Shown: positions 1 through 49,951 of the stretch, in pieces
Position numbering within the stretch: position 1 is the first letter of the stretch
Layout of the letters: each line of letters starts with the position of its first letter
Origin: Escherichia coli
GTDB taxonomy: Bacteria > Pseudomonadota > Gammaproteobacteria > Enterobacterales > Enterobacteriaceae
NCBI RefSeq assembly: GCF_003790525.1
Contig: NZ_CP033635.1
Direction: 5' to 3' (one strand)
DNA: 64,000 bases
Notes under the pieces: generated by a model
What the model was told of the DNA's origin: nothing
The model's database searches: none
Seen by the model: only the letters and a program-made list of their open reading frames with translations
Program-made: the position numbers and the translations under genes

Positions 1-482
1 AACTGTGTGCCCTTGATGACGTCGGTCATGCCGGAATAGGTGGCCCCCAGTAATTCGAGACCTTCTTCTTTCCGGAGGATATCGAGCACTTCCAGTTCGC
101 CGTGAACCCGGGCTTCCACATAGGTGAAGTCCGTGTTGTCGCGTCCTGGTGTGATATGCAGATCTGAGGCATCCAGTTGAGCGGCTTTTCTGATGTAATC
201 AAGAACTTTTCTTTGTACTGTGTTGATCCCTCCGTCGGATAAAACGCCCGGTGCACGTTCCGTATTATTGCTGTTCAGGGTTGCGATAACGTCAAGAGTG
301 GTAAAATCGAATTTGCTGATTTTTCCCGGATAGCGGGAGCGTAAGAGCGTCAGGTAACGTTGTACAGAGGTGATGTGCTTCTTCGCCTCGACGACTTTCA
401 CCCTGATTTTTCCGTCAGCGTCATGCTGAATTGCGACGAAATCACGAATATCTTCAGGAGGCAGTTCGATAGTCTCTGGCAT
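1..482 (-). CDS. pilQ: Type IVB pilus assembly ATPase, GspE/PilQ-like, N-terminal 160 aa only (runs off window)
   Basis: Hand translation from ATG at 482 stays open to position 1 (MPETIELPPEDIRDF...); contains ASDLHITP, close to the GspE/PilB-family SDIHIEP motif; follows pilP in R64-like order. Confidence 0.55.
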   Translation of the reverse strand, partial: MPETIELPPEDIRDFVAIQHDADGKIRVKVVEAKKHITSVQRYLTLLRSRYPGKISKFDFTTLDVIATLNSNNTERAPGVLSDGGINTVQRKVLDYIRKAAQLDASDLHITPGRDNTDFTYVEARVHGELEVLDILRKEEGLELLGATYSGMTDVIKGTQ

Positions 483-491
483 GATGGCACC

Positions 492-953
492 TCACGGGCG
501 TAGCGTCTGCCTGTTGCCGTTGTATTCCAGAATCACACTGTCCGGTGTGATTTGTTCCACCATGAACAGTGTACCGGGTAATGCCTGTCCGGCCCTGACA
601 TCAGTTTCAGTTCCTCCGGGGAGTATGACGCGTGCTGAAAGCTGTGGCTGAATACCAAAGATTTCTTTCAGACGGGGGGATGAAAATGCCTGTGAACCGG
701 AGGAGGTGCCAGCCGCATTTTCCGGCTGATGTCCCGTGACAGAACCGGAAACCGGGGAGATACCCTGTTCCAGTGTCCGCAATTCATGACGAATTTTTTC
801 TCTTGCCAGCATCGCTTCATACAGGGCGGTTTCTTCCTGAATCTGCTCAATCTGCAGTTGTTTGTTCTGTGACGCGTCATTTTCGTTGCCGGCCACTGCC
901 ATTGCCGGTAACAGCAGGGCTGCAATCAGCAGCGCTTTTGTTTTATCGTGCAT
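492..953 (-). CDS. pilP: Type IVB pilus protein PilP-like (signal peptide)
   Basis: ORF 492..1160; likely start at internal Met giving MHDKTKALLIAALLLPAMAVAG signal peptide (about 153 aa); overlaps pilO end; position in operon. Confidence 0.45.
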   Translation of the reverse strand: MHDKTKALLIAALLLPAMAVAGNENDASQNKQLQIEQIQEETALYEAMLAREKIRHELRTLEQGISPVSGSVTGHQPENAAGTSSGSQAFSSPRLKEIFGIQPQLSARVILPGGTETDVRAGQALPGTLFMVEQITPDSVILEYNGNRQTLRP

Positions 954-2241
954 AATATTTACCTGTGAACTGATAACGGAAACGACCATTTTCCAGTTGT
1001 CTTGTGACAGAGAGAAAACGGACAGATGGCTCGCTGAAGCGCTCTGCCAGCTGGTTAGCCGGGAGTAGCGTCTGTATCTGCAGGTCATACTCTTTCCACG
1101 GTGGCTGGATGATGTTTCCGTTTTCATCAGTGAAGCTGTTATTGACTTCCTGCCAGTCAATCTGCAGTTGAACTGACTGTGCGAGCGTGGTCAGTCGTTC
1201 CTGCAGGTCTCGGGTTTCCGGAAGGGAATCAACCGGGACAGGATTATCCGGGAGCCGGAATGTGACCGGCAGTGCAACGCCGCCAGAGTTCCCTTCAGGC
1301 ATAACAATAAACGGCCGGGTGTCTGTGAGTTCAGTGATGCGCCGGATGAAGGCTGTCACTGTCGTGCCTGCTGTATTGGTGTATGAAGACCGCAGATTAC
1401 CGCTGTTACCGTCAGTAGAACATTCAGCCAGGGTATAACGCCATCCGGCAGCAGACAGTGGCGTCTGGTTCCATGTTGTGCTGCATTGCCGGATAAATTC
1501 TCCGCTCTCAGGCTGCCTCGTCCATGGTGGCGTTATACGTGCTTCAGCTGCTTTCCGGGCGCTTTCTTCCCGTTCCGCTTTTTCCGCCTGCCAGATTTCA
1601 TAACGTTGCCAGCCGTACCACGATGCGCCAAGCAGCGTGATGATGAGTAAGGCTGTCATTAACTGTGGGCCTCTGGACACGGGGAGCAGACGCGCTTCTG
1701 CCGGATGCTTTCTGGTGCTGATCAGGTTTGACAGCGGTAGCGGGATACACCGACTGTCTGGTGAAAAACCGTCAGGTTCGTAGCGTACCCAGCCGTTTTC
1801 CGGTTCCGCATTGAGCATCAGGAACGTGTTGCGGGCTTCCGTGATTTCAGTCGGGGTACCGGTAACGTCGTTAACCAGAATGCCATTAATCACCGATACA
1901 AACGCACAGGTGAGTTCAGCGTCGTCGTTCTCGATGATGAAAATGGCATACCCACCTGATTTGAGTAGCGGGCGTATTAACATTGCCAGTGACAGGCACT
2001 GGCGAATGTTACGGGGGATATCTGCATCCTGACGACTGAGCAGGGCAATCATCATTTCATCACCGTTTTCACCGTCGTGGTTGTGGCAGGAAAGATACAG
2101 TTCTGCGCCCTGTGACCGGGCAAACCGCCGGGCATTCCGGTAACCGGGAGGTATGCTCTTCCAGTCAAGGCCCGCAAGGAATGCCTGTTTACCCGATATC
2201 AGTGAAACCGGACGAATTTTTTTCTGCATTGACCCGTTCAA
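943..2241 (-). CDS. pilO: Type IVB pilus biogenesis protein PilO-like
   Basis: 432-aa ORF with one internal hydrophobic segment; size and position between secretin and pilP match R64 PilO (about 431 aa). Confidence 0.5.
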   Translation of the reverse strand: MNGSMQKKIRPVSLISGKQAFLAGLDWKSIPPGYRNARRFARSQGAELYLSCHNHDGENGDEMMIALLSRQDADIPRNIRQCLSLAMLIRPLLKSGGYAIFIIENDDAELTCAFVSVINGILVNDVTGTPTEITEARNTFLMLNAEPENGWVRYEPDGFSPDSRCIPLPLSNLISTRKHPAEARLLPVSRGPQLMTALLIITLLGASWYGWQRYEIWQAEKAEREESARKAAEARITPPWTRQPESGEFIRQCSTTWNQTPLSAAGWRYTLAECSTDGNSGNLRSSYTNTAGTTVTAFIRRITELTDTRPFIVMPEGNSGGVALPVTFRLPDNPVPVDSLPETRDLQERLTTLAQSVQLQIDWQEVNNSFTDENGNIIQPPWKEYDLQIQTLLPANQLAERFSEPSVRFLSVTRQLENGRFRYQFTGKYYAR

Positions 2242-2252
2242 GGGAACCTCCG

Positions 2253-3878
2253 TCAGATTACGTGCGGTGTGATCAGCACAACCAGAATGGTGTCATCGTC
2301 ACCGCTGTCAGTGCCGCCACCCAGCCCGAAGAATGCCGGGCTGCCGACGCCCTGGCGCACGGATTTGCTGCCGGACTGCCGGAATCCGCTGAGAATGACG
2401 GTCTGACCTGATTTCAGGTCGATGGTCTGGTTGATGGTTTTCAGGTCTACCGTGGGCACCTGTGCCCGGCTGCCGCCGCTCTCGAACACCTCAAAGGTGG
2501 GTTTGTCGGAGAGGTTCATGCTGAAGAGCAGCTGCAGGCTGCGCGCATCCGGCTGAATGAACGGCAGCAGGGTCATGTTGAAGCCGGTGGTGATGGTGGC
2601 GGCGTTCAGGGAGGTGCTGGTCCCGACGTTGGCCGTGGTGTCGGTGGTGACACCTTCGATATAGCCCTGCTGGCTGGCCACCTGCATGGGCACCGGCGTC
2701 ATGTTTTTGGTGACGGCGGAGTTCTGTGTGACCACGCTGACGGTGCCCTGACTGGAGAGCGCCTTCAGGAAGGCCTTCGAGCCGGTGAGCTTACCGTCCA
2801 CAATGGAGACGCCACTGGTGATGATGTCATCGGCGGCACTGCTGAATGCCCCTCCCAGCGTGAGGCCGAGACGTCCGTCGCTGAAGACGGCATTCCAGTC
2901 AATGCCGGCCTGGTCACGGCGGGTTTTTCTGACGCTGAGGACTTCCACGTTCAGCACCACCTGACGTCGCATCTCGCGGTTACGTGCCTCCACAAAACGG
3001 CTGACGGTGTCGAGGACCCGAGGGGTGTCGGTGACGGTGAGAAAGCCGGTGGCAAGCACCATCCGGCCGGTCCCGGGGGTCAGCATGGCACCGACGGCAT
3101 TTTTCAGGTCCTCATAGAGGGTGGACTTCATGTCGACCGTGGTGGTCTGGGTGTTGCTGGCCTCCCCGCTGAGGGTGCCGGCGTTACTGCCGGTACTGCT
3201 GCCGGATGAGGAGGAGGCGGTGCCGCTGACCACCCGGGCGTTGTAGGTCACCTGAGAGTCCATGTAGGTGACCGGGAAGGTGCGTGTCTCCAGCCAGTAA
3301 AAGGTGATGGCGCGCCGGTCACTGTCGTAACGGTACGAGATACCGAGCCGGGAGGCGACGGTATCCAGCAGCTGCCGCAGCCCGGTGGCGCTGAGTTCCG
3401 GCAGGACGGCACCGCCGCCCGGGGGGATGACCTGTGCGCCACTGCCGACGGCGGCCAGCGGCACCATGCCGTTCGGGTCCGGTGCGGGGATTGCGCCTGT
3501 CAGCTGCTGTGTGGGGCCGGTGGTGGCCAGCGCCTGCCAGACGTCGGCGGTGATGGTCACGGGGATACCGCAGCTTCCGGTGATGCGCTGGGCTATCTGC
3601 CGCAGGCTGATATCCCGGCGGGTGTTGATGATGATGGGGCAGCCCGGCAGGCTCTGGTGTGCGGGGCTGACGCTGACAGGGGAGGGGTTGATCCACTGTC
3701 GCGTGGTCTCCGTGACCACCGGCCGGGATTTACGGAGTTCGCCCGCGTGCCGGCGCGCTTTCTCCAGTGTGGCGGTGGCGTCTTTTTCCGTGTTGCTGAT
3801 ACGTTCGGCCGTACCGCAGCCTGACAGCAGCAGGGCGACGGCAGTCAGTGGCAGGAGCATGTGTTGTCTTTTTTTCAT
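2253..3878 (-). CDS. pilN: Type IVB pilus secretin lipoprotein PilN-like
   Basis: Start at 3878 gives MKKRQHMLLPLTAVALLLSGC (lipobox LSGC) preceded by an AAGGA RBS; C-terminus ...TILVVLITPHVI is secretin-like; about 541 aa. Confidence 0.7.
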   Translation of the reverse strand: MKKRQHMLLPLTAVALLLSGCGTAERISNTEKDATATLEKARRHAGELRKSRPVVTETTRQWINPSPVSVSPAHQSLPGCPIIINTRRDISLRQIAQRITGSCGIPVTITADVWQALATTGPTQQLTGAIPAPDPNGMVPLAAVGSGAQVIPPGGGAVLPELSATGLRQLLDTVASRLGISYRYDSDRRAITFYWLETRTFPVTYMDSQVTYNARVVSGTASSSSGSSTGSNAGTLSGEASNTQTTTVDMKSTLYEDLKNAVGAMLTPGTGRMVLATGFLTVTDTPRVLDTVSRFVEARNREMRRQVVLNVEVLSVRKTRRDQAGIDWNAVFSDGRLGLTLGGAFSSAADDIITSGVSIVDGKLTGSKAFLKALSSQGTVSVVTQNSAVTKNMTPVPMQVASQQGYIEGVTTDTTANVGTSTSLNAATITTGFNMTLLPFIQPDARSLQLLFSMNLSDKPTFEVFESGGSRAQVPTVDLKTINQTIDLKSGQTVILSGFRQSGSKSVRQGVGSPAFFGLGGGTDSGDDDTILVVLITPHVI

Positions 3879-3940
3879 GCAGAAATCCTTGTGTGAAACG
3901 TGAAAACAGTGAGCAGAGCAGGGAGGGCAGAAGCGCTTCG

Positions 3941-4012
3941 GGACTGAAGTCTGCGCGTGATGGCGATATATCCGCGGGACATGACCGCGGCCGGATATGC
4001 AGACTTCAGTCC
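3941..4012. promoter_or_regulatory. Nested inverted-repeat structure in pilM-pilN intergenic region
   Basis: Perfect 14-bp inverted repeat GGACTGAAGTCTGC (3941-3954) / GCAGACTTCAGTCC (3999-4012) enclosing inner inverted repeat ATATCCG / CGGATAT and CCGCGG palindromes. Confidence 0.5.
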
Positions 4013-4067
4013 ACAGGCTCCTCACACTGTGCGGGACAGCGAAGGTTAACGGTGCAGTGATGTCCCG

Positions 4068-4505
4068 CTAGTTGAAATAAACAAATGCGCTGTCAGGAAT
4101 GACGGACGGCACGCTGATACCGGTGTCCTGACCTGTGGTGTTCAGCAGTCGCCGCCCCTTCACCCGGCCTGCCAGCGCGGTTTTGTGGGTGATGTCTGCC
4201 AGCGCACCTGCAAGCCCCGGGCGGTCATCCTGCCAGACAAAGACCCGCTGTCCGGCGATGATATGGCGGGTACCGTATACCGGGCGGAAACCCGTGGCGG
4301 TGACGGGGAGCGTGCCACCCCCCGTGCGCTCAGCCGGATGGGTGTACAGCCGGTCGTTAATGCCGTTCATGAGGCGGACCATCTCCCACGCACGTTCACG
4401 CATCTCCGCCTGCTCGCTGTACACGGTGACCCGGTGGGTACTGCTGTTGTGAAACCAGGTCAGCGCCACGGTCAGGGCCATGACCAGGGAGAGCGACCAG
4501 CCCAT
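4068..4505 (-). CDS. pilM: Type IVB pilus protein PilM-like
   Basis: Start at 4505 (MGWSLSLVMALTVALTW, N-terminal hydrophobic) lies 2 nt after the pilL stop; 145 aa, same length as R64 PilM. Confidence 0.45.
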   Translation of the reverse strand: MGWSLSLVMALTVALTWFHNSSTHRVTVYSEQAEMRERAWEMVRLMNGINDRLYTHPAERTGGGTLPVTATGFRPVYGTRHIIAGQRVFVWQDDRPGLAGALADITHKTALAGRVKGRRLLNTTGQDTGISVPSVIPDSAFVYFN

Positions 4506-4507
4506 GG

Positions 4508-5233
4508 TCAGTCTCCCGGTCTGTCGCTGACGTGCACCACACACTGCGTGCTGTTGATGGCTGCATACAGCGGCGTCTGTGCGTCCTGATAGAGACGGAA
4601 GAGTTCACTGAGCGCGTGGCGGAACTCGCCGGTGAAATGCAGCGGCGCATCGATGCTGTAATTGAGTCCGGGGTTCTGCCAGGCCAGCTGCCAGGTGCCA
4701 CCGGCCTGACAGGGAACGGCGGCCACCCACTGCTCAAGACCGGCACGCAGCAGGGTTCCGCGGGCAAGAGTCCAGGTGGTCCGTGCATGCGCCGGTTGCG
4801 GCATGTTTGCTGATTTTTCCGCGGTTTTTTCCTGCAGACTGGTGGTGCCCGGGGTGGCCTGAGACGGACTGAACAGGGTGTTCCGCTCAATACGTACATG
4901 CTTCTTCTCCGTGTCGGTGATGGCGCGGAGCTGATATTTTTTCAGCATGCGTTCCGTAACGTAATTCCACTGGTCATTTCCCTTCCATGACACCGTGCGG
5001 GGCGGCCTGACATCCGGTGCAATGTCAAATGTCCATCCCGGCGGTATCAGTTGCTGCATGGCTTTTTTCAGTGATAACCCTTTACCGTCCCGGGGAATAA
5101 ATTTCAGTGCTCCCGGAGCGCTGCTGACCGTGGACGATGAGGGTGCACTGACCTGAGAAGGTGACGGTGCAGCAAAAAGTGGAACAGAAAATGCCAGCAG
5201 CGGCACAATAAGAAGTGGTTTCAGTGGTGTCAT
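4508..5233 (-). CDS. pilL: Type IVB pilus protein PilL-like (secreted)
   Basis: 241-aa ORF with signal peptide MTPLKPLLIVPLLAFSVPLFA; second gene of the minus-strand operon. Confidence 0.45.
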   Translation of the reverse strand: MTPLKPLLIVPLLAFSVPLFAAPSPSQVSAPSSSTVSSAPGALKFIPRDGKGLSLKKAMQQLIPPGWTFDIAPDVRPPRTVSWKGNDQWNYVTERMLKKYQLRAITDTEKKHVRIERNTLFSPSQATPGTTSLQEKTAEKSANMPQPAHARTTWTLARGTLLRAGLEQWVAAVPCQAGGTWQLAWQNPGLNYSIDAPLHFTGEFRHALSELFRLYQDAQTPLYAAINSTQCVVHVSDRPGD

Positions 5234-5285
5234 ATTATGGTCCTGTATCGCACATTTTTTGTGTTTCCTGAGCCTGTATCCGGTT

Positions 5286-5504
5286 TTATTCCGGCTGAAC
5301 TCTGCTGCATGAGAATGCGGTGACGTTCACTTTCACACTGAACGATTTACCGGCCTCTTTTTCTTTTAAAAACAGCCTGACGCATTCAGGCTCAGTCATC
5401 GGTGTGTTCTGAAAACGCACCCAGGATACCGGTGCACCACCAGGCTTCAGGATGGTGGCTTCAATCCGGTATTTATGCGGTGTGGTGTCTGTTGTTGCTG
5501 TCAT
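5286..5504 (-). CDS. Small hypothetical protein (72 aa), first gene of the pil operon
   Basis: ATG at 5504 preceded by AGGAG at about 7 nt; no recognisable domain. Confidence 0.35.
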   Translation of the reverse strand: MTATTDTTPHKYRIEATILKPGGAPVSWVRFQNTPMTEPECVRLFLKEKEAGKSFSVKVNVTAFSCSRVQPE

Positions 5505-5512
5505 TCATGGCT

Positions 5513-5580
5513 CCTGTTGCCGGTTTCCGGTCCCGGAAAAACAGGCGACATCAGCAACAAGGGGAAAAACGCGATGTCGC
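5513..5580. promoter_or_regulatory. Palindrome cluster upstream of pil operon (candidate operator / oriT-related site)
   Basis: CCTGTT...TTTCCGG-TC-CCGGAAA...AACAGG (5513-5545) and 8-bp inverted repeat GCGACATC / GATGTCGC (5545-5580). Confidence 0.35.
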
Positions 5581-6030
5581 CTGAAAGGTACTGGTGCAGC
5601 GGTGCGTTGTACGGACGCAGGTCCGCACAACCGGAAATACACGGGATGATTCGGTCAGTGTATTTTCGTGTTGTGCGCCTGTACTGATACGGCAGGGTGT
5701 GATGAGTGTTACCTGTGGCTGCAGGCGCGGCACGTCACTCATAACGTAGCATTCTGTTTCCTCCTCAGCCCGGCTTCAGGGCGTTGCCGCAATACCCGAT
5801 TGTTAAAGAGCCTTACCGGCATGGTGTCCGGTGTCACCGCGCGGATAACGATACGGCGGTGTCTGAAGGGATGATGCTGCGGCGCTCTGCACATGGCGAC
5901 GATTAATTCTTTTTGTGTTTCTGAAAATTTATTGCCGGGAAATTTCTGGTGTGACAGGGTGAATTAATTCTGGTCAGCGACGCTCCTGAGAAGGCAGAGT
6001 GCGCTGACATTTCGTGAACGGAGGAATGCC

Positions 6031-7539
6031 ATGTCCCTGAATCCCACCGATGAACAGTCAGCCATCATTCACTGGCAGGGGGAAAAACTGGTGGTGAATG
6101 CCTTTGCCGGTACAGGCAAAACCAGCACACTGGTGCAGTTCGCCGCAGCCTGCCCTGAGAGCCGGATGCTGTATCTGGCCTATAACCGCGCGATTCGTGA
6201 TGAGGCGGAGCGCCGGTTTCCCTTTAATGTGGAGTGCAAAACCTCCCATCAGCTGGCGTATTCGCGGTTCGGAAAGCATTTCCGGCATCGTCTGGTGCCG
6301 GGGCTGTCAGTGACGGATGTAGCGAGAAAACTGAACACCCGCTACTGGACGCTTGCCCGTGTTGCCATGACCGCGCTGAATCAGTTCATCTGTTCGGCGG
6401 ACGTGGCGCCCGGAATGCAGCATATGCCGCCTCCCGACGAGATGAAGGGCATGTCGCCACAGGATGCGCTGCGTGCCGTGCAGATCCTCTGGCATGAAAT
6501 GAGCAATCCGGATGGCAATTTTCCGGTCACTCACGACACCTATCTGAAGCTCTATCAGCTTTCCTCACCGGATCTGTCACGCAGGTGGGATACGATCCTT
6601 TTTGATGAGGCCCAGGATGCGAATCCGGTGACGTCCGCACTGGTGCTGGGGCAGCGGTGCAGGGTGGTACTGGTTGGCGACCGTTACCAGCAGATTTATC
6701 GTTTTCGTGGTGCCAGCGATGCACTGTCGCATCCGGCACTGAACGGGGCGGACCGTCTCTGGCTGACGCAAAGTTTTCGTTTTGGTCCTGCCGTGGCCGG
6801 GGTGGCCAGCCAGTTACTGAAGCGTGCCGGCGAGAGCCGTGAGGTGACCGGCAGGGGCGGGGATGATGAAGTGCTGACGGCAGGTGAAATGCGTGCGCGC
6901 GTGAAGGCAGGGAAGATGACCGGTCACAGGGCGATACTGAGCCGGACGGTGGCCGGTGTGATTGGCACGGCACTGATGGCGGCAATGCGTGGCAGGAAGG
7001 TTTACTGGGTGGGGGGCATTGAAGGCTACAGAACGGAAGCACTGGAAGATCTTTACTGGTTTCAGATGGACATGCCGGAGCGGATGCACAGTGACAGACT
7101 GCGAAAGGACTACCGGAGTTTTGACGAGTACCGTCATATTGCGAAGGTGACGAAGGATGTGGAAATGAATCAGTCCATTCGTCTGCTGGAGCTGTGCTTT
7201 CCGCTGCCGAAGAAACTCGAACTTCTCAGAAAGCACACCGTCACGAATGAACAGGAGGCGGATATCACGGTCTCAACGGCACACCGCAGTAAGGGACTGG
7301 AGTGGGCACTGGTGATACTCGATGATGATTTTCAGGATATCACCGACCCGCTGATAAGCGAGCAGGAGCGGCGTGATGAAACCAATCTGCTCTATGTGGC
7401 GGTCACCCGGGCGCGCAGAACGCTGGTTCTCAATGAGCTCATGCAGCAACTGACGGAAGCTGCCGGCGATGGTGGTGCACCCGGAAACGCGCCGGTGCAG
7501 GGGAAGGAAGACGATGGCGTGGAGGGAGAGGATGTTTAA
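6031..7539 (+). CDS. SF1 (UvrD/Rep-like) DNA helicase
   Basis: 502-aa ORF; Walker A AFAGTGKTS; ILFDEAQD Walker B-like; C-terminal VSTAHRSKGLEW and LLYVAVTRAR motifs typical of UvrD_C; GGAGGAA RBS before the ATG. Confidence 0.75.
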   Translation: MSLNPTDEQSAIIHWQGEKLVVNAFAGTGKTSTLVQFAAACPESRMLYLAYNRAIRDEAERRFPFNVECKTSHQLAYSRFGKHFRHRLVPGLSVTDVARKLNTRYWTLARVAMTALNQFICSADVAPGMQHMPPPDEMKGMSPQDALRAVQILWHEMSNPDGNFPVTHDTYLKLYQLSSPDLSRRWDTILFDEAQDANPVTSALVLGQRCRVVLVGDRYQQIYRFRGASDALSHPALNGADRLWLTQSFRFGPAVAGVASQLLKRAGESREVTGRGGDDEVLTAGEMRARVKAGKMTGHRAILSRTVAGVIGTALMAAMRGRKVYWVGGIEGYRTEALEDLYWFQMDMPERMHSDRLRKDYRSFDEYRHIAKVTKDVEMNQSIRLLELCFPLPKKLELLRKHTVTNEQEADITVSTAHRSKGLEWALVILDDDFQDITDPLISEQERRDETNLLYVAVTRARRTLVLNELMQQLTEAAGDGGAPGNAPVQGKEDDGVEGEDV

Positions 7540-9157
7540 GCGGTTCAGACGTATGCTGCCCGGCACAAAGGTCACGGAGCCAGGCGTGGTCGCGCCGGTG
7601 ATACCGGCAGGGTTTTATGCGCCGCTCACAGCAGAAGCACTGTTATCACCAGAGCACAGGGAACTGAGGCTCAGGCAGGTATGGGATAACAATCCGATGC
7701 CCCGTGATGTATACGACAGGATGTGCCTTGCGCCACTCAGCCGGCTGTTGCTGAACACCCAGAATGTGCCGGCAACACGGGAAGGACGGTGGTCCCGTGC
7801 CGGTGGATTTGGTGATCTGACGGTACTGTACACCACGTATGCCGTTCGTCTGGCAAGAGGGTACATGTTTCCACCGGATGCGACCCCGGAAGACCAGGCG
7901 GCTCAGGCCGCAGTCTGGCATACGGTGATTTTCTGGTCAGCGCTGTTTTACCACCTGCCCCTGCTGGCGCACCTTGAGGGGGAGCTGCTGAGTGGTCGGG
8001 GCTGGCAGCCAGGGATTTCTGTGCCTGACGAACCTTTCCGTTTCCGGTTCAGGAAGACGGCGCCGCAGGGCACGGAAGCGCAACAACTGGCGGCCCTGAC
8101 TGCCGGCACGCTGTTACCGGACGGCGCAACGGCCTGGCTTGTGACGGCGCCGGGGGCGCTGCAGAATCTGGCCGGGGCGCTCTGGCATCAGCATCCCGGG
8201 ATGGCGCTGATTCGTGATGTGCTGCAGGAAGCGGCAAGGCAGACAGAGAGTCCGCTGAATACCTGCGCTGTCACTGCGCCGGTTACTGCGGAGGCTTCAG
8301 CAGACATCCGTCCTGCTGACCCGGTGGTGACCGGCAGCACGGACAGTGTGATGGCAGTCACTGAGGTGCAGCCGGCAGAGGAGGTGAAGACTGAGAGCGT
8401 GCAGACAGAGACTGAAGGTGGTGGTGAGTCCGCCGGAGCGTCAGAGGTGCCGTCCGCACAGCAGGAACTGACGGTTCAGACAGCGCCAGTGGTGACGGCA
8501 GATGATGAAGCGGTCAGTGCTTCTCCTGCGGATCAGGACACAGCAATGCTGCTGAGTCTTTTTTCAGCAGATGAGTCCGAAACTGCTGAACGGGATAATG
8601 GGGATGTGGTGATGCTGGCTGATGAGGAAGAAGCGCAGGATCTCACCGATGGACCGGATGAAGGCGATTCGTCTCCGGGCAGTATTCATGAATCGCCGTA
8701 TCTGGTGGAGAGTGACGCGTCGGTTAATCAGTCCGTATCCGGGGAATACCGCGCAACAGAAGTGAATCCGCTTACCGGAGATGATCCTGATTTAAAGGGA
8801 GAGACGTTTTTGGACTGGCTTAAAGCAGGGCTGAACAGTGGTGAGATATCATTTAACCAGAAAGGCGACAAAATACACATTGTTGCAGGACTGGTTTTCC
8901 TGCCGGTACCAGGCATTTTCTTTGATTACCTGAAAGCAGTGCAGCTTCCCGGGGACAAACGCCCGATTGTTCAGTCATCATTTGAGCGGCTCTGTATCAA
9001 TAAACGCCGTGATGACCAGCGTTTTTATTTTGCTCGTATTGCTGAGGAACCCGGGAACTGTGCACGTTACAAAACAGTCAAAGGTTACCTGGTCAAAGGA
9101 CGTAGTCTGATGCATGAAAGTAAACTGAAAGACAGTCCTTATCTTTTTATTTCGTGA
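7514..9157 (+). CDS. Putative conjugative relaxase (TraI_2 / MOBH-like) with acidic low-complexity linker
   Basis: ORF 7469..9157; start chosen at ATG 7514 (AAGGAAG RBS), overlapping helicase stop; C-terminal segment (IHIVAGLVFLPVPGIFFDYLK...) resembles TraI_2_C; family assignment is from memory. Confidence 0.5.
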   Translation: MAWRERMFKRFRRMLPGTKVTEPGVVAPVIPAGFYAPLTAEALLSPEHRELRLRQVWDNNPMPRDVYDRMCLAPLSRLLLNTQNVPATREGRWSRAGGFGDLTVLYTTYAVRLARGYMFPPDATPEDQAAQAAVWHTVIFWSALFYHLPLLAHLEGELLSGRGWQPGISVPDEPFRFRFRKTAPQGTEAQQLAALTAGTLLPDGATAWLVTAPGALQNLAGALWHQHPGMALIRDVLQEAARQTESPLNTCAVTAPVTAEASADIRPADPVVTGSTDSVMAVTEVQPAEEVKTESVQTETEGGGESAGASEVPSAQQELTVQTAPVVTADDEAVSASPADQDTAMLLSLFSADESETAERDNGDVVMLADEEEAQDLTDGPDEGDSSPGSIHESPYLVESDASVNQSVSGEYRATEVNPLTGDDPDLKGETFLDWLKAGLNSGEISFNQKGDKIHIVAGLVFLPVPGIFFDYLKAVQLPGDKRPIVQSSFERLCINKRRDDQRFYFARIAEEPGNCARYKTVKGYLVKGRSLMHESKLKDSPYLFIS

Positions 9158-9210
9158 GTGGAGGGGAGGCTATTATTGCAGGAATGTGAATGAAATGTAA
9201 AAGGTAATCA

Positions 9211-10200
9211 ATGAAAATAAATAATGCGGATAAGTGCTGGAATGATTTGATGGATGAGTTTTTTTTCTGCCGTTCAGTACGTGAAGCTACGGAGTGGAGC
9301 TACAGAAAGGTGCTGAACGGATTCCGTAAGTTTGTTGGCGGGACTCTGTTACCGGAAGATATCCGACAACAACATGTCAGGGAGTGGCGACGGGAGGTCC
9401 TGAAAAACCAGAAACGTTCAACTCATACATGGAACAACAAGGTACGCCATATGCGCGCTATCTTCAGTTTTGCTTCCTCATCTGAACTCCTGCATTTAAG
9501 TTGTAACCCGTTTGAGGGTATGAGCGTCAGACAGGAAAAGAAACGCAAAAAAACACTGACCCGGAAACAAATAAAACGCATCCTGCTGGTCCTTGAGCAG
9601 TTTCAGGAGGATGAAATGAACCTGAAGATGCACTGGAAGTGCGCCATTCGTCCGGCCTGGTACTGGATTATTGTGGTTAACACACTTCGCTTTACGGGGA
9701 TGAGGCTGAATCAGCTGCTGCATCTGCGCCTGCGGGATGTTAATCCTGAAGAACGGTGGATTGATTTATGCTCTGAAGGCAGCAAGACACATCATGAGTG
9801 GCGGATCCCGATGGTCAGTCATCTGGTTCCGGGGATAACCAGGCTGATGGATGAAGCGGTGAAACGTGGAGCCACGCCTGATGATTATCTTTTCCACTAT
9901 CATCGCTATGCTTTGCCTGTGTCTGAAGCATTATCGGTGAGCGGACCTCCGGAAGAGCAGAAGGTCAAAGGTTTTTTCCGGCGTCTGTCGAAAGAGTGTG
10001 GTTTTCAGGTATCTGCACATCGTTTCAGACACACTCTGGCAAGTACTCTGATGGCGGCACCGGAACGAAATCTGTACATGGTGAAAACCATGCTGGGTCA
10101 CCGGAATGTTTCAACGACACTGGAATATGTGGAGATGGATCTGAAGGGAACAGCACGTATACTTGAGGCCGAACTGTCAAAACTGACAGACGATCTTTAA
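9211..10200 (+). CDS. int: Tyrosine recombinase / integrase (329 aa)
   Basis: RBS AAGGTAA; catalytic-looking residues in LRFTGMR, HRFRHT, GHRNVSTT and LEYVE (R, H-x-x-R, H, Y); adjacent to tRNA-Phe 3' end. Confidence 0.85.
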   Translation: MKINNADKCWNDLMDEFFFCRSVREATEWSYRKVLNGFRKFVGGTLLPEDIRQQHVREWRREVLKNQKRSTHTWNNKVRHMRAIFSFASSSELLHLSCNPFEGMSVRQEKKRKKTLTRKQIKRILLVLEQFQEDEMNLKMHWKCAIRPAWYWIIVVNTLRFTGMRLNQLLHLRLRDVNPEERWIDLCSEGSKTHHEWRIPMVSHLVPGITRLMDEAVKRGATPDDYLFHYHRYALPVSEALSVSGPPEEQKVKGFFRRLSKECGFQVSAHRFRHTLASTLMAAPERNLYMVKTMLGHRNVSTTLEYVEMDLKGTARILEAELSKLTDDL

Positions 10201-10396
10201 TCAGGTGATTGCTTACAGTTGTTGACAACATGAAAAACCGTTGCAATCATAATGAATGATCGAGAAAGGGAGCATGCGACCAACATGCTCCCCAATCGAG
10301 AAAATGAGATGGCATGACCTAGACTCACGACATCTTGCACCTTCCCGATGACACCCGTCAGGGTTCTCACTCCTGACCAGTGGCTTTGATGTAAGG

Positions 10397-10472
10397 TGGT
10401 GCCCGGAGGCGGAATCGAACCACCGACACGGGGATTTTCAATCCCCTGCTCTACCGACTGAGCTATCCGGGC
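10397..10472 (-). tRNA. pheV: tRNA-Phe (GAA), pheV locus, variant T-stem
   Basis: Reverse complement reads GCCCGGATAGCTCAGTCGGTAGAGCAGGGGATTGAAAATCCCCGTGTCGGTGGTTCGATTCCGCCTCCGGGCACCA; matches E. coli tRNA-Phe except four compensatory T-stem changes. Confidence 0.9.
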
Positions 10473-10577
10473 AACGGGGCGCATTAAACCTGATTCGCCT
10501 CGTCTCGTCAATCAAATTTCTTCAATTTACTGCAGACTGCACAATCTATCATCACTTTGCCGCTATTGCACGCATTG

Positions 10578-11306
10578 TCAGGCAAACCAGGCGGTCCAGG
10601 CGGCGGAAAGCGGCATTGCCAGAAGGAGTGCTGGAAGCATGTTGACCACCGGGAACATTTTAATGCCACAGATGCGTAATCCGGTTGCCAGCAGCAATAA
10701 ACCGCCTACGGCGCTGAAGTCTGCCATCATCGACGGTGTGGTCAGCGGTAATATCAGCGCGGCAGCCCACGCCAGTGTTAACTGGATGATCAGTAATGGA
10801 ATGCTAATCACCGACACCGCAATACCCAGCGAGCAGGCGAAGATCATCGCCGTAAAGAAATCGAGAAATGACTTGGCGATTAAAATACTCGGATCGCCGG
10901 TCATCCCTTCGTTCATCGCCCCGAAGATCCCGGTGCCGCTGGCGCAAAACAGGACAATAATCGCGACATAATTCTGAATAAAAGATTCATGCGCTGGCTT
11001 CTTAGGTGAGTGGCGAAACAGATTTTGTGCTTTGGTGACCGCGGTATTGACCCCTTTTTCCAGCAGACACATTTCGCCGATTAATGCACCGAGTAAGGTT
11101 GCTAAAACCATCGCCGGAAGGTTGGCGCATTTCACCACCAGTAAAATACCAATCCCCAGCGATGCCAGACCAAAAATTGATGTCATGGAGACGCGGATAC
11201 GTTCCGGTAAGCGTTGACTAAGGAGTGCACCGAGAACGCCACCCAGTAATACTGCACTTGCGTTGATAAAAGGACCGATGACCACAAGAGTTCCTGTTAG
11301 CTGCAT
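10578..11306 (-). CDS. yqgA: DUF554 inner membrane protein YqgA
   Basis: 242-aa polytopic membrane ORF next to pheV as in K-12. Confidence 0.85.
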   Translation of the reverse strand: MQLTGTLVVIGPFINASAVLLGGVLGALLSQRLPERIRVSMTSIFGLASLGIGILLVVKCANLPAMVLATLLGALIGEMCLLEKGVNTAVTKAQNLFRHSPKKPAHESFIQNYVAIIVLFCASGTGIFGAMNEGMTGDPSILIAKSFLDFFTAMIFACSLGIAVSVISIPLLIIQLTLAWAAALILPLTTPSMMADFSAVGGLLLLATGLRICGIKMFPVVNMLPALLLAMPLSAAWTAWFA

Positions 11307-11677
11307 TGTCTGATTTTCTTATTATGACCGTTTGGCTCCTTCGATGGCTTGTTTGTTCGCAAAGTCCTGGCTTGCACGCTCTGGTGAAAGGTGCCATGAT
11401 TGCGCGAATTTTCTCCTCTCTGTACGGAGTTTGCCCGATGCACGCCACCTCCTTACATTCTCTCGCTTATCGCCGTTTCGCGCGAAACTCCTCCCTTTTT
11501 CTGCTCATGCGGTGAGGTTAACGCACGCTCACTGCAGGACAACAGTAAAATCAGAGCGTTTCTGCTTTTACTGATGTCTGGCGGTCGGAGCTGGTGACCA
11601 GTTTGACCCATATCTCGTGGGGCAGGGTTTTTCACCTTGTCCGGTATTCTTACTTCCCCGAAACGGGTTTTGCGCTT

Positions 11678-13813
11678 ATGAAATCAATGAATATTGCCGC
11701 CAGTAGTGAACTGGTATCCCGACTTTCTACTCATCGCCGCGTGGTGGCGTTGGGAGATACTGATTTTACGGACGTCGCGGCAGTCGTCATTACCGCTGCG
11801 GATAGTCGCAGTGGCATTCTTGCGTTGCTTAAGCGCACCGGTTTTCATCTACCGGTGTTTTTGTATTCCGAACATGCTGTTGAATTACCTGCGGGCGTTA
11901 CGGCGGTAATTAACGGCAACGAGCAGCAGTGGCTGGAGCTGGAATCCGCAGCCTGTCAGTATGAAGAGAATTTGCTGCCACCGTTTTATGACACGCTGAC
12001 GCAGTACGTTGAGATGGGTAATAGCACCTTTGCTTGCCCTGGGCATCAACATGGTGCGTTCTTTAAAAAGCATCCTGCCGGACGCCATTTTTACGATTTC
12101 TTTGGTGAGAACGTCTTTCGCGCCGATATGTGTAACGCTGACGTAAAATTGGGCGATCTGCTTATTCATGAAGGATCGGCGAAAGATGCGCAGAAATTCG
12201 CAGCCAAAGTCTTTCATGCCGATAAAACCTATTTTGTGCTGAACGGCACATCGGCAGCGAATAAAGTGGTGACGAATGCGCTGTTAACGCGTGGCGATCT
12301 GGTGCTCTTCGACCGTAACAACCATAAGTCGAATCATCACGGCGCGCTGATTCAGGCGGGGGCGACGCCGGTCTATCTGGAAGCTTCACGTAACCCGTTT
12401 GGTTTCATTGGCGGTATTGATGCGCACTGTTTTAATGAAGAGTATCTGCGCCAGCAAATTCGCGACGTTGCGCCAGAAAAAGCCGACCTGCCGCGCCCGT
12501 TTCGCCTGGCGATTATTCAGCTGGGAACCTATGACGGCACTGTCTATAACGCCCGTCAGGTGATCGATACCGTTGGGCATCTGTGTGATTACATTCTGTT
12601 TGATTCCGCATGGGTCGGTTACGAACAGTTTATCCCGATGATGGCGGATAGCTCGCCGCTGCTGTTAGAACTTAACGAAAACGATCCGGGGATCTTTGTG
12701 ACCCAGTCGGTGCACAAACAGCAGGCGGGATTCTCACAGACGTCGCAGATCCATAAAAAAGATAACCATATCCGTGGACAGGCGCGTTTTTGCCCGCATA
12801 AGCGGTTGAATAATGCCTTTATGCTCCATGCTTCTACCAGCCCGTTCTATCCGCTGTTCGCCGCGCTGGACGTTAACGCCAAAATTCATGAAGGGGAGAG
12901 TGGGCGTCGGCTGTGGGCGGAGTGCGTTGCGTTGGGGATTGAAGCCCGGAAGGCGATTCTTGCGCGCTGTAAGCTGTTCCGCCCGTTTATCCCGCCCGTT
13001 GTTGATGGCAAATTGTGGCAGGATTATCCGACGTCAGTGTTAGCCAGCGACCGCCGTTTTTTCAGTTTTGAGCCGGGGGCGAAGTGGCACGGCTTTGAAG
13101 GATATGCCGCGGATCAGTATTTTGTTGATCCGTGCAAGCTGTTACTCACCACGCCGGGTATCGATGCCGAAACCGGCGAATATAGCGATTTTGGCGTTCC
13201 GGCGACGATTCTGGCGCACTATCTGCGTGAGAACGGCATTGTGCCGGAGAAGTGCGATCTCAATTCCATTCTGTTCTTATTAACTCCGGCGGAAAGCCAC
13301 GAGAAGCTGGCACAACTGGTGGCGATGCTGGCGCAGTTTGAACAGCATATTGAGGATGACTCGCCGCTGGTTGAGGTGTTGCCGAGCGTTTATAACAAAT
13401 ATCCGGTGCGTTATCGCGACTACACCCTGCGCCAGTTGTGTCAGGAGATGCACGATCTGTATGTCAGTTTCGACGTCAAAGACCTACAAAAAGCGATGTT
13501 CCGCCAGCAGAGTTTCCCGTCAGTGGTGATGAATCCCCAGGATGCGCATAGCGCTTATATTCGCGGTGAAGTGGAGTTGGTGCGGATTCGTGATGCCGAA
13601 GGGCGAATTGCGGCAGAAGGGGCGTTACCTTATCCACCTGGCGTGCTTTGCGTGGTACCCGGGGAAGTCTGGGGTGGGGCGGTTCAACGTTATTTCCTTG
13701 CACTGGAAGAAGGGGTGAATTTGTTGCCGGGATTTTCGCCGGAGCTGCAAGGTGTCTATAGCGAAACCGATGCGGATGGCATGAAACGGTTGTACGGTTA
13801 TGTGTTGAAGTAA
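11678..13813 (+). CDS. speC: Ornithine decarboxylase, constitutive
   Basis: 711 aa from MKSMNIAASSELV...; ORF-track start at 11594 is an upstream extension. Confidence 0.95.
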   Translation: MKSMNIAASSELVSRLSTHRRVVALGDTDFTDVAAVVITAADSRSGILALLKRTGFHLPVFLYSEHAVELPAGVTAVINGNEQQWLELESAACQYEENLLPPFYDTLTQYVEMGNSTFACPGHQHGAFFKKHPAGRHFYDFFGENVFRADMCNADVKLGDLLIHEGSAKDAQKFAAKVFHADKTYFVLNGTSAANKVVTNALLTRGDLVLFDRNNHKSNHHGALIQAGATPVYLEASRNPFGFIGGIDAHCFNEEYLRQQIRDVAPEKADLPRPFRLAIIQLGTYDGTVYNARQVIDTVGHLCDYILFDSAWVGYEQFIPMMADSSPLLLELNENDPGIFVTQSVHKQQAGFSQTSQIHKKDNHIRGQARFCPHKRLNNAFMLHASTSPFYPLFAALDVNAKIHEGESGRRLWAECVALGIEARKAILARCKLFRPFIPPVVDGKLWQDYPTSVLASDRRFFSFEPGAKWHGFEGYAADQYFVDPCKLLLTTPGIDAETGEYSDFGVPATILAHYLRENGIVPEKCDLNSILFLLTPAESHEKLAQLVAMLAQFEQHIEDDSPLVEVLPSVYNKYPVRYRDYTLRQLCQEMHDLYVSFDVKDLQKAMFRQQSFPSVVMNPQDAHSAYIRGEVELVRIRDAEGRIAAEGALPYPPGVLCVVPGEVWGGAVQRYFLALEEGVNLLPGFSPELQGVYSETDADGMKRLYGYVLK

Positions 13814-22274: not shown

Positions 22275-22329
22275 CTCATGTTAAGTGCCTTTGCCGGATA
22301 ATATAAAAAGTTATCCGGCAAATTATTTT

Positions 22330-23631
22330 TTACATTAGCCCTAGTAGCTGTGGAATGAACAAGGATATTTGCGGGATGTAAGTGATCATCATCAACGCGA
22401 TTAACAATGCGGCATAAAATGGCAGCAATGGTTTGATCAAATGTTGAATCTTCACACCTGAAATAGAACAACCAACAAATAGCGCACTACCCACCGGCGG
22501 TGTTAACAGCCCAATACAAAGGTTAGCCACCATCATAATACCGAAATGTACCGGATCCATTCCCAGCTCTTGTGCAATCGGCAAGAAGATTGGTGTGAAG
22601 ATTAGTACAGCTGGTGTCATGTCCATAAAGATGCCGACAATTAATAAGACGATATTAATCAGCAGCAATATGACCAGTGGGTTATCAGAAATCCCCATCA
22701 ACGCGTCGCTGATCATATAAGGAATATCAGCATTGGTCATTGCCCAGGACATGCCCACGGAAAAACCGATCAACAGTAATACAATCGAAGTGGTAACAAC
22801 TGATTCCAGAATCAGTTTGGGTAAATCGCGCCATTTTACTTCCCGGTAAATCAGCACCGAGAGAATAAATGTGTAGACAACGGCAATCGCAGACGCTTCA
22901 GTTGCGGTAAAAATGCCGCCCAGAATGCCGCCCATCACAATGAACACCAGAAGCAAACTTGGTAAGGCATCCAGAAACGCTTTACAGGCCTGAGCGAAGG
23001 TTGCTCTTTCTGAAAGCGGGTAGCCACGGCGTTTAGCAATAATGCCGCAGACTATCATTACCGCGAGACCCATTAAGATCCCTGGCAAATATCCCGCCAT
23101 AAATAATGATGCTACAGAAACGCCGCCAGCTGTCAGGGAAAACACAATTAACACGTTTGAGGGCGGTATCAGTAATCCAGTAATACAAGATGAGACGTTT
23201 ACAGCGGTAGAAAATGCCGGATCATAACCTTCTTTGGTCTGAATGGGATTCAGTGTGCCACCAACGGCAGCAGCTGCCGCAACGGCTGAACCAGAAATGG
23301 AACCAAACATCATATTCGCCAGGACGTTCACATGACCAAGCGAACCAGGAACGCGGCCAACCATTACCTGGGCGAGGTTAATCAAGCGTATCGCAATACC
23401 GCCGCTGTTCATCAGCGTTCCGGCAAAGATGAAAAAGGGGATTGCCAATAGGGCAAAGTTATCCAGTCCATTAGCCAGTCGCTGCGAAACAGTGATTGCC
23501 GCGATATCCCAGGGAAACATCAAAAGCATTGAAGCTACAGTGGCAATACCGATTGAGAACGAAATGGGCACACCAATAAAGACCAGCACAAAAAAACAGC
23601 CAAATAGTGTAAGCGCGATATAACTATCCAT
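22330..23631 (-). CDS. TRAP transporter large permease (DctM family)
   Basis: 433-aa polytopic membrane ORF; forms operon with DctQ/DctP-like genes. Confidence 0.8.
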   Translation of the reverse strand: MDSYIALTLFGCFFVLVFIGVPISFSIGIATVASMLLMFPWDIAAITVSQRLANGLDNFALLAIPFFIFAGTLMNSGGIAIRLINLAQVMVGRVPGSLGHVNVLANMMFGSISGSAVAAAAAVGGTLNPIQTKEGYDPAFSTAVNVSSCITGLLIPPSNVLIVFSLTAGGVSVASLFMAGYLPGILMGLAVMIVCGIIAKRRGYPLSERATFAQACKAFLDALPSLLLVFIVMGGILGGIFTATEASAIAVVYTFILSVLIYREVKWRDLPKLILESVVTTSIVLLLIGFSVGMSWAMTNADIPYMISDALMGISDNPLVILLLINIVLLIVGIFMDMTPAVLIFTPIFLPIAQELGMDPVHFGIMMVANLCIGLLTPPVGSALFVGCSISGVKIQHLIKPLLPFYAALLIALMMITYIPQISLFIPQLLGLM

Positions 23632-24143
23632 TAACTGGCCTCCTGCGCAGGTTGTTTCAGTTGTTGAATGCTTTGATTAATAAAACACAAGGCATAAAAC
23701 ATCATCACCACTCCACTTAATGGCAGAATGATATATACGTATCCCATCGGTATTTGCATAGCGGCAGATACTTGTGATGTTGCCAGCGTTTTATCAATTA
23801 ATTTCAGGCCACCAGTCACAATGACCGAACCGGCAAAACCTAAAATGAGAATGTTAATGACTATACTAAGAAGTAATTGCTTGCGCTTATTCAGGGCGAG
23901 AGCAAATAAATCGATAGAGAGATGTCTCTGCGCGCCGACGGTATATGCAGCACCTAATAATCCTACCCAGATCATCAAAAAGCGTGCCAGCTCATCGGTT
24001 AATGTACTTGGCTGGTTAAGTACGTAGCGGCTAAATACTTGCCAGACTACGCATACAACCAGAGCAAGCATGACGGCGACAGAAAACGCGGCAATGACGC
24101 GGTCTACCGCAAGTTTCAGGCGGTTAAATATCATTGTAAGCAT
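23631..24143 (-). CDS. TRAP transporter small permease (DctQ family)
   Basis: 170 aa, four hydrophobic segments; start overlaps the DctM ATG. Confidence 0.75.
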   Translation of the reverse strand: MLTMIFNRLKLAVDRVIAAFSVAVMLALVVCVVWQVFSRYVLNQPSTLTDELARFLMIWVGLLGAAYTVGAQRHLSIDLFALALNKRKQLLLSIVINILILGFAGSVIVTGGLKLIDKTLATSQVSAAMQIPMGYVYIILPLSGVVMMFYALCFINQSIQQLKQPAQEAS

Positions 24144-24178
24144 CCTGGAAAATCAGGGCCAGAGACTGGCCCGAAATA

Positions 24179-25165
24179 TTATTGAGCAGCGTTATCGAAT
24201 TTCTCTAACAAAGCAGCTTGTTTTGGATCTTTTTTGAAGTCGTCAAACAGAGGTTGAACTGCGGCACGGAATGGGGCTTTATCAACCTTAACGATTTCAC
24301 CACCCATAGCTTTCGCCTGAGCACGTGTGTCAGCGTCAATTTTTTCCCACAATTTTTGTTGATAAGCTTCGGATTTCTTCGCCGCTGTTTCGAGGATTTG
24401 TTGCTGTTCTGGGGTTAATTTATTCCATGTTTTGGTGGAGATAACCAAAAAGTCAGGAATTGAGGCGTGTTCATCTTCAGAAAAGACTTTGGCAATTTCG
24501 ATATGTCGAGTCTGCACCCAGGAAGGTACATTATTTTCTGCTCCATCCACTACGCCTTGTTGCATCGCAGTATAAACTTCGCCAAATGAAATTGGAGTGG
24601 GTGAGCCACCCATCAGTTCAATCATTTTGATGGTGGTCGGGCTTGGCTGAACACGAATTTTCAGCCCTTTAAGATCTTCTGGCTTAGTAATCGGTTTTTT
24701 CGCATAGAAACTGCGTGTACCCGCTACATAAGCTGATAAAGCAAAAAAGCCTTTGTCTTTTGTTGAGTCCATAATTTCTTTACCAACTTCACCAAAAACC
24801 ACTTTGTTGAAGTGCACCTGATCTTTAAATAAGAACGGCAAATTATAGATAGCATAAATATTATCAAAAGACTCCAGATCACTGGCGGAACCTTTGGTCA
24901 TATCCAGTGCGCCATTTTGCAACAATTCCATAGTTTCTCGCGCATTACCCATCTGGCTGCTGGGATAAATACGGATCACCATATTACCTTTTGACAGCTG
25001 TTTTACCTCTTTCGCCAGCTCTTCAAAACTCTGATGTACAACATGACTTCTTTCCAGGTTGTGTGCTAACTTTAACGTCACTTTTTCTGCGGCGTTTACG
25101 CCAGTGCTAACCAGAGCCAGCAAGGATGCGCAGACTAATGAGCGGGTAAATGACCTCATTTTCAT
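24179..25165 (-). CDS. TRAP transporter substrate-binding protein (DctP/SiaP-like)
   Basis: 328 aa with signal peptide; motifs YPSSQMG, AGTR (carboxylate-binding Arg) and GSPTPISFGEVY resemble SiaP-type binding proteins. Confidence 0.8.
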   Translation of the reverse strand: MKMRSFTRSLVCASLLALVSTGVNAAEKVTLKLAHNLERSHVVHQSFEELAKEVKQLSKGNMVIRIYPSSQMGNARETMELLQNGALDMTKGSASDLESFDNIYAIYNLPFLFKDQVHFNKVVFGEVGKEIMDSTKDKGFFALSAYVAGTRSFYAKKPITKPEDLKGLKIRVQPSPTTIKMIELMGGSPTPISFGEVYTAMQQGVVDGAENNVPSWVQTRHIEIAKVFSEDEHASIPDFLVISTKTWNKLTPEQQQILETAAKKSEAYQQKLWEKIDADTRAQAKAMGGEIVKVDKAPFRAAVQPLFDDFKKDPKQAALLEKFDNAAQ

Positions 25166-25376
25166 AAAAAAACTCCCTGTTGAAGGATGGAAATTGGTTG
25201 ATATCTAATTGTGCTTATCAGTGCTTTGTGCGACAAATTGGTTAACCTGTCTGACAACTTGTCTATGTTTATCACAACTTGAAATAAAGTCAGAAATTAA
25301 ATATTAAATTTGTGCGCCAGGTTGTACATGTTTATAATCAATAAATGATGAGTAAATATTCACTAAATATATATAA

Positions 25377-25395
25377 TAAATATCGTCGATATTTA
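25377..25395. promoter_or_regulatory. 19-bp palindrome in TRAP operon upstream region (candidate operator)
   Basis: TAAATATCG-T-CGATATTTA, perfect palindrome about a central base, in the AT-rich 312-bp region upstream of the DctP-like gene. Confidence 0.4.
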
Positions 25396-25477
25396 TTCAG
25401 TAAGAAATATATTTTTGCCGAAGTTAATTAACGGGGGGTAAAAGAAGTGATTAATGCGCCCGCAGGCGCATTAATGA

Positions 25478-47700: not shown

Positions 47701-48077
47701 GACAATCTTCCTTGAGTAAAGTGTGGGAATATGTCACATGAGATGAGGAGAAAACAGCCGACAGGTGAGAATTCAGAATCTATAAAGGGGTATAGCGAAA
47801 AAACATTGCTTTAAAAAAGTATGTTTTCGGACATTCAATAAATAAATGGCGATATGCATCACAAATACAACAATAATCAAAATGTTGATTTTGTGATAAA
47901 CGTAACAAATACAAAGTTGACTTTAAAAATATCAACTTCATGTTGTTATTATTTAAGGTTTTATTATTTTTGTTCATGGGGTTTTTCTTCTCGCGTACCC
48001 AATTGCTTTCATTAAACCGCACGAGTATTTTATTTTTACCGCCGGACGGTACCCTAAAAATAAAATAAGGATAATTT

Positions 48078-48521: not shown

Positions 48522-48548
48522 TTACTCTCTCCTCTACAGGATAATATT

Positions 48549-49937: not shown

Positions 49938-49951
49938 TTACAGAGGTAAAA

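Follow-up and report, generated by a model that had tools for sequence, protein, structure and literature searches.

An ICEEc2-like integrative conjugative element at pheV of Escherichia coli: the low GC content of its integrase gene is very likely gene-intrinsic, and the mosaicism lies in the pilus operon

ICEEc2, which reportedly comes from the avian E. coli strain BEN374 (in an account by Roche et al. 2010, J Bacteriol 192:5026), is the described element to which we liken the locus studied here. It is known as a PAPI-like integrative conjugative element (ICE) of E. coli integrated in a tRNA-Phe gene (PMC6761156), and its integrase has been placed in the Xer-related "IntKX" group (PMC8138268). 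Our window, by which we mean the whole stretch of 64,000 nucleotides of E. coli DNA that was analysed, carries a comparable element. We consider it very likely that the right end of an ICE of the PAPI-1/pKLC102/SPI-7 type (ICEEc2-like), inserted in the 3' end of pheV, occupies positions 1-10396, that the low GC content of its integrase gene (int) is gene-intrinsic and family-wide, that uvrD, traI and int were inherited as one block, and that the mosaicism is found in the pil operon.

The likeness to ICEEc2 is one of description (PMC6761156, PMC8138268): the window element is a PAPI-like ICE at tRNA-Phe, and many of the 34 complete genomes that match the full 12 kb (1-12000) at 99.3-99.6% by megablast come from chickens. 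Regarding the insertion site, the window element lies at pheV, as does a near-identical copy in strain 5CRE51, while in strain SF-088 (locus L077) the same element, with an identical integrase protein (WP_001696146.1), lies at pheU, on the dicD/dsbD side; both tRNA-Phe genes thus serve as targets. The finding of the same element at pheV and pheU, and in E. coli and Salmonella, gives indirect support to the view that it may be mobile.

With the Pseudomonas elements PAPI-1, pKLC102 and PFGI-1, the locus shares a PFGI-1-class TraI and, in the near-identical copy, type IVb pil genes, a Xer-like integrase beside a tRNA gene and type IV secretion system (T4SS) genes of the TIGR037xx series. It differs from them in its target, which is tRNA-Phe instead of tRNA-Lys (PMC6761156), in its enterobacterial host, and in the layout of the pil operon, which in the near-identical copy follows the R64/SPI-7 order and includes pilV and a shufflon recombinase. 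The likeness to SPI-7 of Salmonella Typhi includes, on annotation names only, the PGAP products "SPI-7-type island replicative DNA helicase", "STY4528 family" and "STY4534 family"; it extends to the pilL-pilV operon of the near-identical copy and its insertion at the tRNA-Phe gene. Unlike SPI-7, that copy has no Vi or SopE cargo among its annotation names, on which this comparison was made. The thin-pilus operon of R64 and IncI-type plasmids contains the same gene families in the same order (pilL-M-N-O-P-Q...), and PilN of the window passes the type IVb secretin model TIGR02520 with 415 bits against a cutoff of 288. However, with ~67-73% nucleotide identity and 66-68% amino-acid identity of PilN, R64/IncI-type operons are too distant to have recently given rise to either pil segment described below. 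The element belongs to a described family, and dozens of RefSeq genomes carry it in annotated form.

The features of the right end are as follows; identities are given relative to L003, a sister element at pheU of E. coli 2015C-3121, and aa stands for amino acids.

1-482, minus strand: 5' part of pilQ (pilus ATPase of the GspE/PulE family), running off the left end of the window; placed by position relative to the annotated 5CRE51 copy (L001 17962-19482)
492-953, minus strand: pilP; GC 0.53; 97% aa identical
943-2229, minus strand: pilO2 (Pfam PAP_PilO); GC 0.53; 98% aa identical; codon bias host-like (z = +0.3)
2200-2260, no strand: recombination breakpoint between the pilO2 start and the pilN stop, from mafft sliding identity and blastn
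2253-3878, minus strand: pilN, secretin, GC-rich allele; GC 0.64, GC3 0.82; 71% aa identical
4068-4544, minus strand: pilM, GC-rich allele; GC 0.64, GC3 0.76; 44% aa identical
4508-5233, minus strand: pilL (TcpQ family); GC 0.58; 46% aa identical
5286-5504, minus strand: small DUF1187 gene, placed by position relative to the 5CRE51 annotation (L001 24286-24504)
6031-7539, plus strand: uvrD, gene of a UvrD-like SF1 helicase; GC 0.58, GC3 0.66; 82% aa identical
7532-9157, plus strand: traI, relaxase of the MOB_H / PFGI-1-class ICE type; GC 0.57; 53-57% aa identical
9211-10200, plus strand: int, Xer-related tyrosine recombinase of 329 aa; GC 0.480-0.482; Karlin z = +0.6
10201-10396, no strand: spacer between int and the tRNA gene, presumed attR arm; GC 0.47; 89% identical
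10397-10472, minus strand: tRNA-Phe gene (pheV), whose 3' 50 nt (10397-10446) are the att core

The window is E. coli chromosome; by megablast, the core part of 1-12000 is matched in 5425 of 5426 complete genomes. As the left part of the ICE lies outside the window, its content is taken from the 5CRE51 copy, which is 99.7% identical across the window portion and measures 73.5 kb with a GC content of 0.528. This copy contains a backbone of ParA, DnaB-PI, ParB, TopB and SSB, the TIGR037xx T4SS genes, cargo, and a complete pil operon with a shufflon. TraD and TraG are annotated there among the type IV secretion genes of the MPF_G type and are thus known for the window element by proxy; the annotated pil genes run from pilQ to pilV with the shufflon recombinase, of which pilL, M, N, O and P lie within the window.

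The two proteins nearest the end of the element were identified by profile models. TraI scores 193.2 bits with TIGR03760, the model of the PFGI-1-class relaxases (curated cutoff 161.4), and matches both Pfam TraI_2 and TraI_2_C, as a MOB_H relaxase does. Int, at the very end, contains a Phage_integrase domain (72.6 bits) and matches the XerA, XerC and XerD models with scores far under their cutoffs, which is consistent with a Xer-related yet distinct group. Looking up the clusters of Int and TraI for an explicit mention of ICEEc2 gave generic names only.

The tRNA-Phe gene at 10397-10472 is the sole tRNA gene in the window, and we identify it as pheV because it is flanked by yqgA and speC. Its 3' end is 196 bp from the end of int, and this spacer is the best-conserved stretch outside the pil genes in the comparison with L003. 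Insertion with direct repeats is indicated by a 50-bp repeat with 92% identity, between 10397-10446 of the window and L002:5765-5814 of 5CRE51. This imperfect repeat of the 3' part of tRNA-Phe bounds the 5CRE51 copy, the left end being outside the window itself. In RefSeq, L002:5765-5842 at the left end of the 5CRE51 element carries the name "tRNA-Ser"; it is a 50-nt remnant of the 3' part of tRNA-Phe (attL), and ARAGORN finds no tRNA in that interval. Just outside this remnant, 5CRE51 has an IS26 and a truncated P4-type integrase.

The pheV tRNA-Phe gene beside the element is a chimera, in which the 3' ~50 nt are the ICE-derived variant. Its T stem reads GGTGG/CCGCC, compared with CTTGG/CCGAG in native E. 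coli, and the four substitutions compensate one another in pairs. The native T stem is kept in the attL remnant of 5CRE51, as well as at pheU in L003 and L004 (the latter being the element of strain RM11911), and the variant T stem also adjoins int in seven other loci, from Pluralibacter, Pantoea, Xenorhabdus and Kluyvera.

A sequence-only reading of this DNA had proposed that int is AT-richer than the GC-rich region of the pil and relaxase genes, that the core is intermediate, and that the integration and conjugation modules consequently differ in evolutionary origin. The first of these statements is borne out by computation. The GC content is 0.480 for 9211-10200 and 0.576 for 1-9000, so the two are not within a few percent of each other; the gap of 9.6 points represents ~6 binomial standard errors for 990 nt, and int falls under the minimum (0.501) of all 990-nt segments in 1-9000. 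The entire interval 9211-10396 has a GC content of 0.479. The remaining compositional statements hold in part. The core (10473-64000) is numerically intermediate, with 0.507, but int is inside the normal core range, at the 21st percentile of its 990-nt segments (sd 0.038), and adjacent core segments of corresponding sizes differ by at least 0.091 at 4.9% of positions. Likewise, the pil/relaxase region is GC-rich as a whole but heterogeneous, from 0.53 in pilP and pilO2 to 0.64 in pilN and pilM. Compared with the 57 ORFs of the whole ICE (mean 0.534, sd 0.069), int is 0.8 sd under the mean.

The raw gap, together with the general modularity of ICEs, speaks for a reading in which the integrase had a donor of its own, AT-richer than the rest, and was combined only afterwards with the conjugation/relaxase module, which is GC-richer. 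The location of the step speaks against it, since the drop in GC does not begin at the gene junction: its onset is inside traI, at ~8400-8700. In consecutive 300-nt blocks, the GC content of traI is 0.59, 0.62, 0.66, 0.58 and 0.50, and it is 0.42 in the final 189 nt; in other terms, it is 0.62 for 7532-8431 and 0.50 for 8432-9157. Considering this and the evidence given below, we regard a separate acquisition of int as very unlikely.

Most of the step is predicted by the encoded proteins. When the expected GC content is calculated from the amino-acid content of each protein and the codon usage of 26 long core ORFs taken together, values of 0.499 for int (observed 0.480-0.482) and 0.567 for traI (observed 0.568) are obtained, and therefore ~80% of the int-traI gap is predicted by amino-acid content alone, which argues against a separate donor. 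Ala, Gly and Pro together account for 12% of Int and 26% of TraI, and Int has more Lys, Asn, Phe, Met and His, so that codon positions 1 and 2 of int are AT-rich. In the 37 loci that could be compared, 83% of the int-traI gap is located in these two positions, which are not wholly independent of ancestry, as amino-acid composition may drift with the GC content of a donor. What is left over for int is small, with residuals of -0.018 for GC and -0.047 for GC3, within one sd of the core genes (GC3 sd 0.061).

The synonymous sites and the codon bias likewise count against a separate acquisition. At four-fold degenerate sites, int and traI show no consistent difference across the family (mean of int minus traI -0.016, p = 0.23). 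Codon bias is equal in the two genes, with a Karlin B relative to the core of 0.380 for int (z = +0.6) and 0.373 for traI (z = +0.5), the core genes having 0.322 +/- 0.094. Foreign codon usage or synonymous GC unlike that of the neighbouring genes, as expected of a separately acquired gene, is not found in int; it is found in pilN (B = 0.611, z = +3.1) and pilM (z = +2.0). We infer that the GC content of int is set by protein composition rather than by ancestry; int would be a gene with AT-rich codon positions 1 and 2, whose synonymous sites and codon bias match those of traI and the host.

The same arrangement and the same step recur in the relatives of the element. L003 and L004, at pheU of E. 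coli, have integrases that are 81% and 64% identical to that of the window, respectively; they keep the order uvrD-traI-int-tRNA(Phe) and have GC contents of 0.56 in uvrD, 0.52-0.54 in traI with a tail of 0.42-0.44, and 0.46-0.48 in int. Scanning the Int alignment against one genome per species yielded 72 loci, whose hosts include Pantoea, Erwinia, Pectobacterium, Serratia, Klebsiella, Edwardsiella, Xenorhabdus, Brenneria and Morganella, and, among the more distant ones, Thioalkalivibrio and Gilvimarinus. In nearly all loci with enough DNA, int is immediately preceded by a TraI homologue on the same strand, a UvrD homologue is upstream of traI in ~25 loci, and tRNA-Phe is downstream of int in most Enterobacterales loci; pil genes less than 10 kb from int are present only in the window element and L003. 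In all 37 loci compared, the GC content of int is lower than that of traI (by 5.6 points on average, sd 3.0), and in all 20 loci where uvrD could be compared it is lower than that of uvrD (by 8.4). Conserved traI-int synteny with the same step in every locus is hard to reconcile with an integrase that joined the window element from elsewhere. The window gap of -9.1 points, however, exceeds the family mean, which counts against the explanation we favour. In many of the Xenorhabdus loci (L025-L048), a short TraI-like ORF of ~300-345 aa, corresponding to the C-terminal part, is upstream of int, with no match to uvrD; these loci may be decayed or reduced elements.

The AT-rich 3' end of traI suggests another reading, in which selection at the DNA level keeps ~8700-9500 (traI 3' end, intergenic region and int 5' end; GC 0.42-0.46) AT-rich, for instance as an int promoter or for H-NS-type silencing. 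In the window, the last 100 codons of traI have a four-fold GC of 0.48 against 0.65 in the rest, with L004, L031, L032, L026 and L051 behaving likewise, and in 32 of 37 loci the GC content is lower over the last 300 nt of traI than over the first 1200. For PAPI-1, a nucleoid protein, MvaT, is reported to control transfer (PMC8565334), which also fits such a reading. Nevertheless, over the family the four-fold difference between traI tail and body has a mean of -0.024 (negative in 19 of 37 loci, p = 0.21), and that between int head and body a mean of +0.003 (p = 0.92); a scan of 8400-10500 for promoters and terminators gave counts equal to the shuffled expectation, with no excess; and amino acids already predict 0.525 for the C-terminal part of traI against 0.600 for the N-terminal part. 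We therefore consider selection on this patch improbable as the source of the step. Given its AT-rich four-fold tail in the window, traI may nonetheless be subject to some local effect on the DNA or have undergone an old exchange within the gene, a point that counts against our favoured explanation.

It is also conceivable, if unlikely, that a GC-richer host (~60% GC, like the T4SS module) was the source of the entire element and that the integrase end has since drifted towards the composition of E. coli faster than uvrD, pilN-pilL and the 5' part of traI have done. In the near-identical copy, the T4SS module, with a GC content of 0.56-0.64 and a GC3 of 0.60-0.72, does resemble pilN, pilM, pilL and uvrD, and the four-fold GC in the window is 0.65 in the body of traI and 0.55 in int. 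However, taking traI entire, the difference between int (0.551) and traI (0.628) is 0.077, only ~1.5 standard errors. Furthermore, the order uvrD > traI ~ int at four-fold sites holds across hosts of differing GC, and its persistence where synonymous sites are saturated argues for gene-specific equilibria and not for a transient state.

Regardless of the GC of the host flanks, the four-fold GC of uvrD is higher than that of traI in 20 of 20 loci and higher than that of int in 18 of 20, by ~0.13. A tentative account of the order of the three genes and of the AT-rich traI tail in the present lineage, to which we give little weight, is that mutation or selection within these ICEs differs by gene or by position, and that ancestry is not the cause. 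Candidate causes would be that some parts are exposed as single strands for longer than others during transfer, or that nucleoid proteins silence the surroundings of the integrase.

The phylogenies point to the reading that we prefer, that is, to a common inheritance of the integrase and the relaxase. Trees were built by neighbour joining (NJ) on p-distances or Kimura distances, not by maximum likelihood. The distance matrices of Int and TraI are correlated (Mantel r = 0.79 for n = 20 and 0.885 for n = 37, both p <= 0.0005), and their NJ trees have 6 of 17 and 14 of 34 splits in common, against ~0.15 with permuted labels. The clades formed by the window element and L003, and by these two and L004, have 94-100% bootstrap in the trees of Int, TraI and UvrD, in a run where Kimura distances were undefined for some very distant pairs. 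The separate phylogenies of integrase and relaxase that the sequence-only reading had called for thus place the window element congruently, and its proposal of different origins for the two modules, as far as int and the relaxase are concerned, is contradicted by these shared nearest relatives, by the step seen in every one of the loci and by the equal codon bias.

Within the block, TraI is the fastest-evolving protein throughout the family. A swap of TraI relative to Int was considered and rejected, as the TraI identity between the window element and L003 (0.53) is only 1.4 sd under the family regression on Int identity. In another lineage, the proteins of L007 (Pantoea sp.) and L022 (Erwinia oleae) are discordant, UvrD being 92% identical, Int 56% and TraI 53%, which indicates that helicase-integrase exchange does occur in some lineages; this pair lends something to a separately acquired integrase.

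Taken together, conserved synteny, a family-wide step, amino-acid content and congruent trees mean that the GC step is not evidence of a separate origin of int. We conclude that int and the relaxase of the window element share a history and that the step stems mainly from the proteins that these genes encode. In functional terms, uvrD, traI and int would be co-inherited as a block that combines DNA processing for transfer with site-specific integration and excision at tRNA-Phe. In general, a raw GC step between adjoining genes of a mobile element does not amount to a separate origin unless it survives controls for amino-acid content, synonymous sites and relatives.

The mosaicism proposed for the island does exist, with its joint inside the pil operon and not between integrase and relaxase. 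In the alignment with L003 (mafft sliding identity), identity is 97-100% from 1 to ~2200 and collapses abruptly at the pilO2/pilN junction, first to 0.84 and, across pilN, pilM and pilL, to 0.55. Across these three genes the GC content is 0.58-0.74 in the window element and 0.45-0.59 in L003. Further right, nucleotide identity is 0.76-0.85 in uvrD, 0.53-0.79 in traI and 0.74-0.81 in int. The GC3 residual of pilN is +0.234, or 3.8 sd.

The GC-rich pilN-pilL allele is present at >=99% identity in 36 complete E. coli genomes, and all other E. coli matches are at most 80% identical, none being found between 80% and 99%. A search for its donor by PilN protein search and among plasmid pil operons and E. 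coli genomes found none; the PilN search returned no relative between 90% and 68% identity, the next-best being 68%. Plasmid pil operons were rejected as a recent donor, their nucleotide identity being at most ~73%.

A lineage-specific, GC-rich pilN-pilM-pilL allele with foreign codon usage thus abuts a pilO2-pilP segment. This second segment hardly differs between the window element and a sister that has diverged elsewhere, which points to homologous exchange with a breakpoint at ~2230. A separate history for part of the pilus operon is supported by this sequence comparison, and not by the GC content of the integrase; the direction and the donor of the exchange are matters that we infer. For the annotation of the window, the analysis fixes an ICEEc2-like ICE of the PAPI-1/SPI-7 family at pheV, the att core at 10397-10446, the uvrD-traI-int block and the joint at ~2230. 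Compositional mosaicism of ICEs is common knowledge, and the present case matters little past bookkeeping.

Two low-GC patches were observed in the core part of the window. The strongest, at 22275-25477, is a 3.2-kb insertion relative to 5CRE51, between yggM and hemW, which contains on the minus strand a TRAP transporter operon (DctP, DctQ and DctM families) with a GC content of ~0.44. The second, at 46800-50000 (0.43-0.47), includes a Band_7/SPFH gene and genes for PTS EIIA and EIICB proteins (147 and 462 aa), which by their size and position may be cmtB and cmtA.
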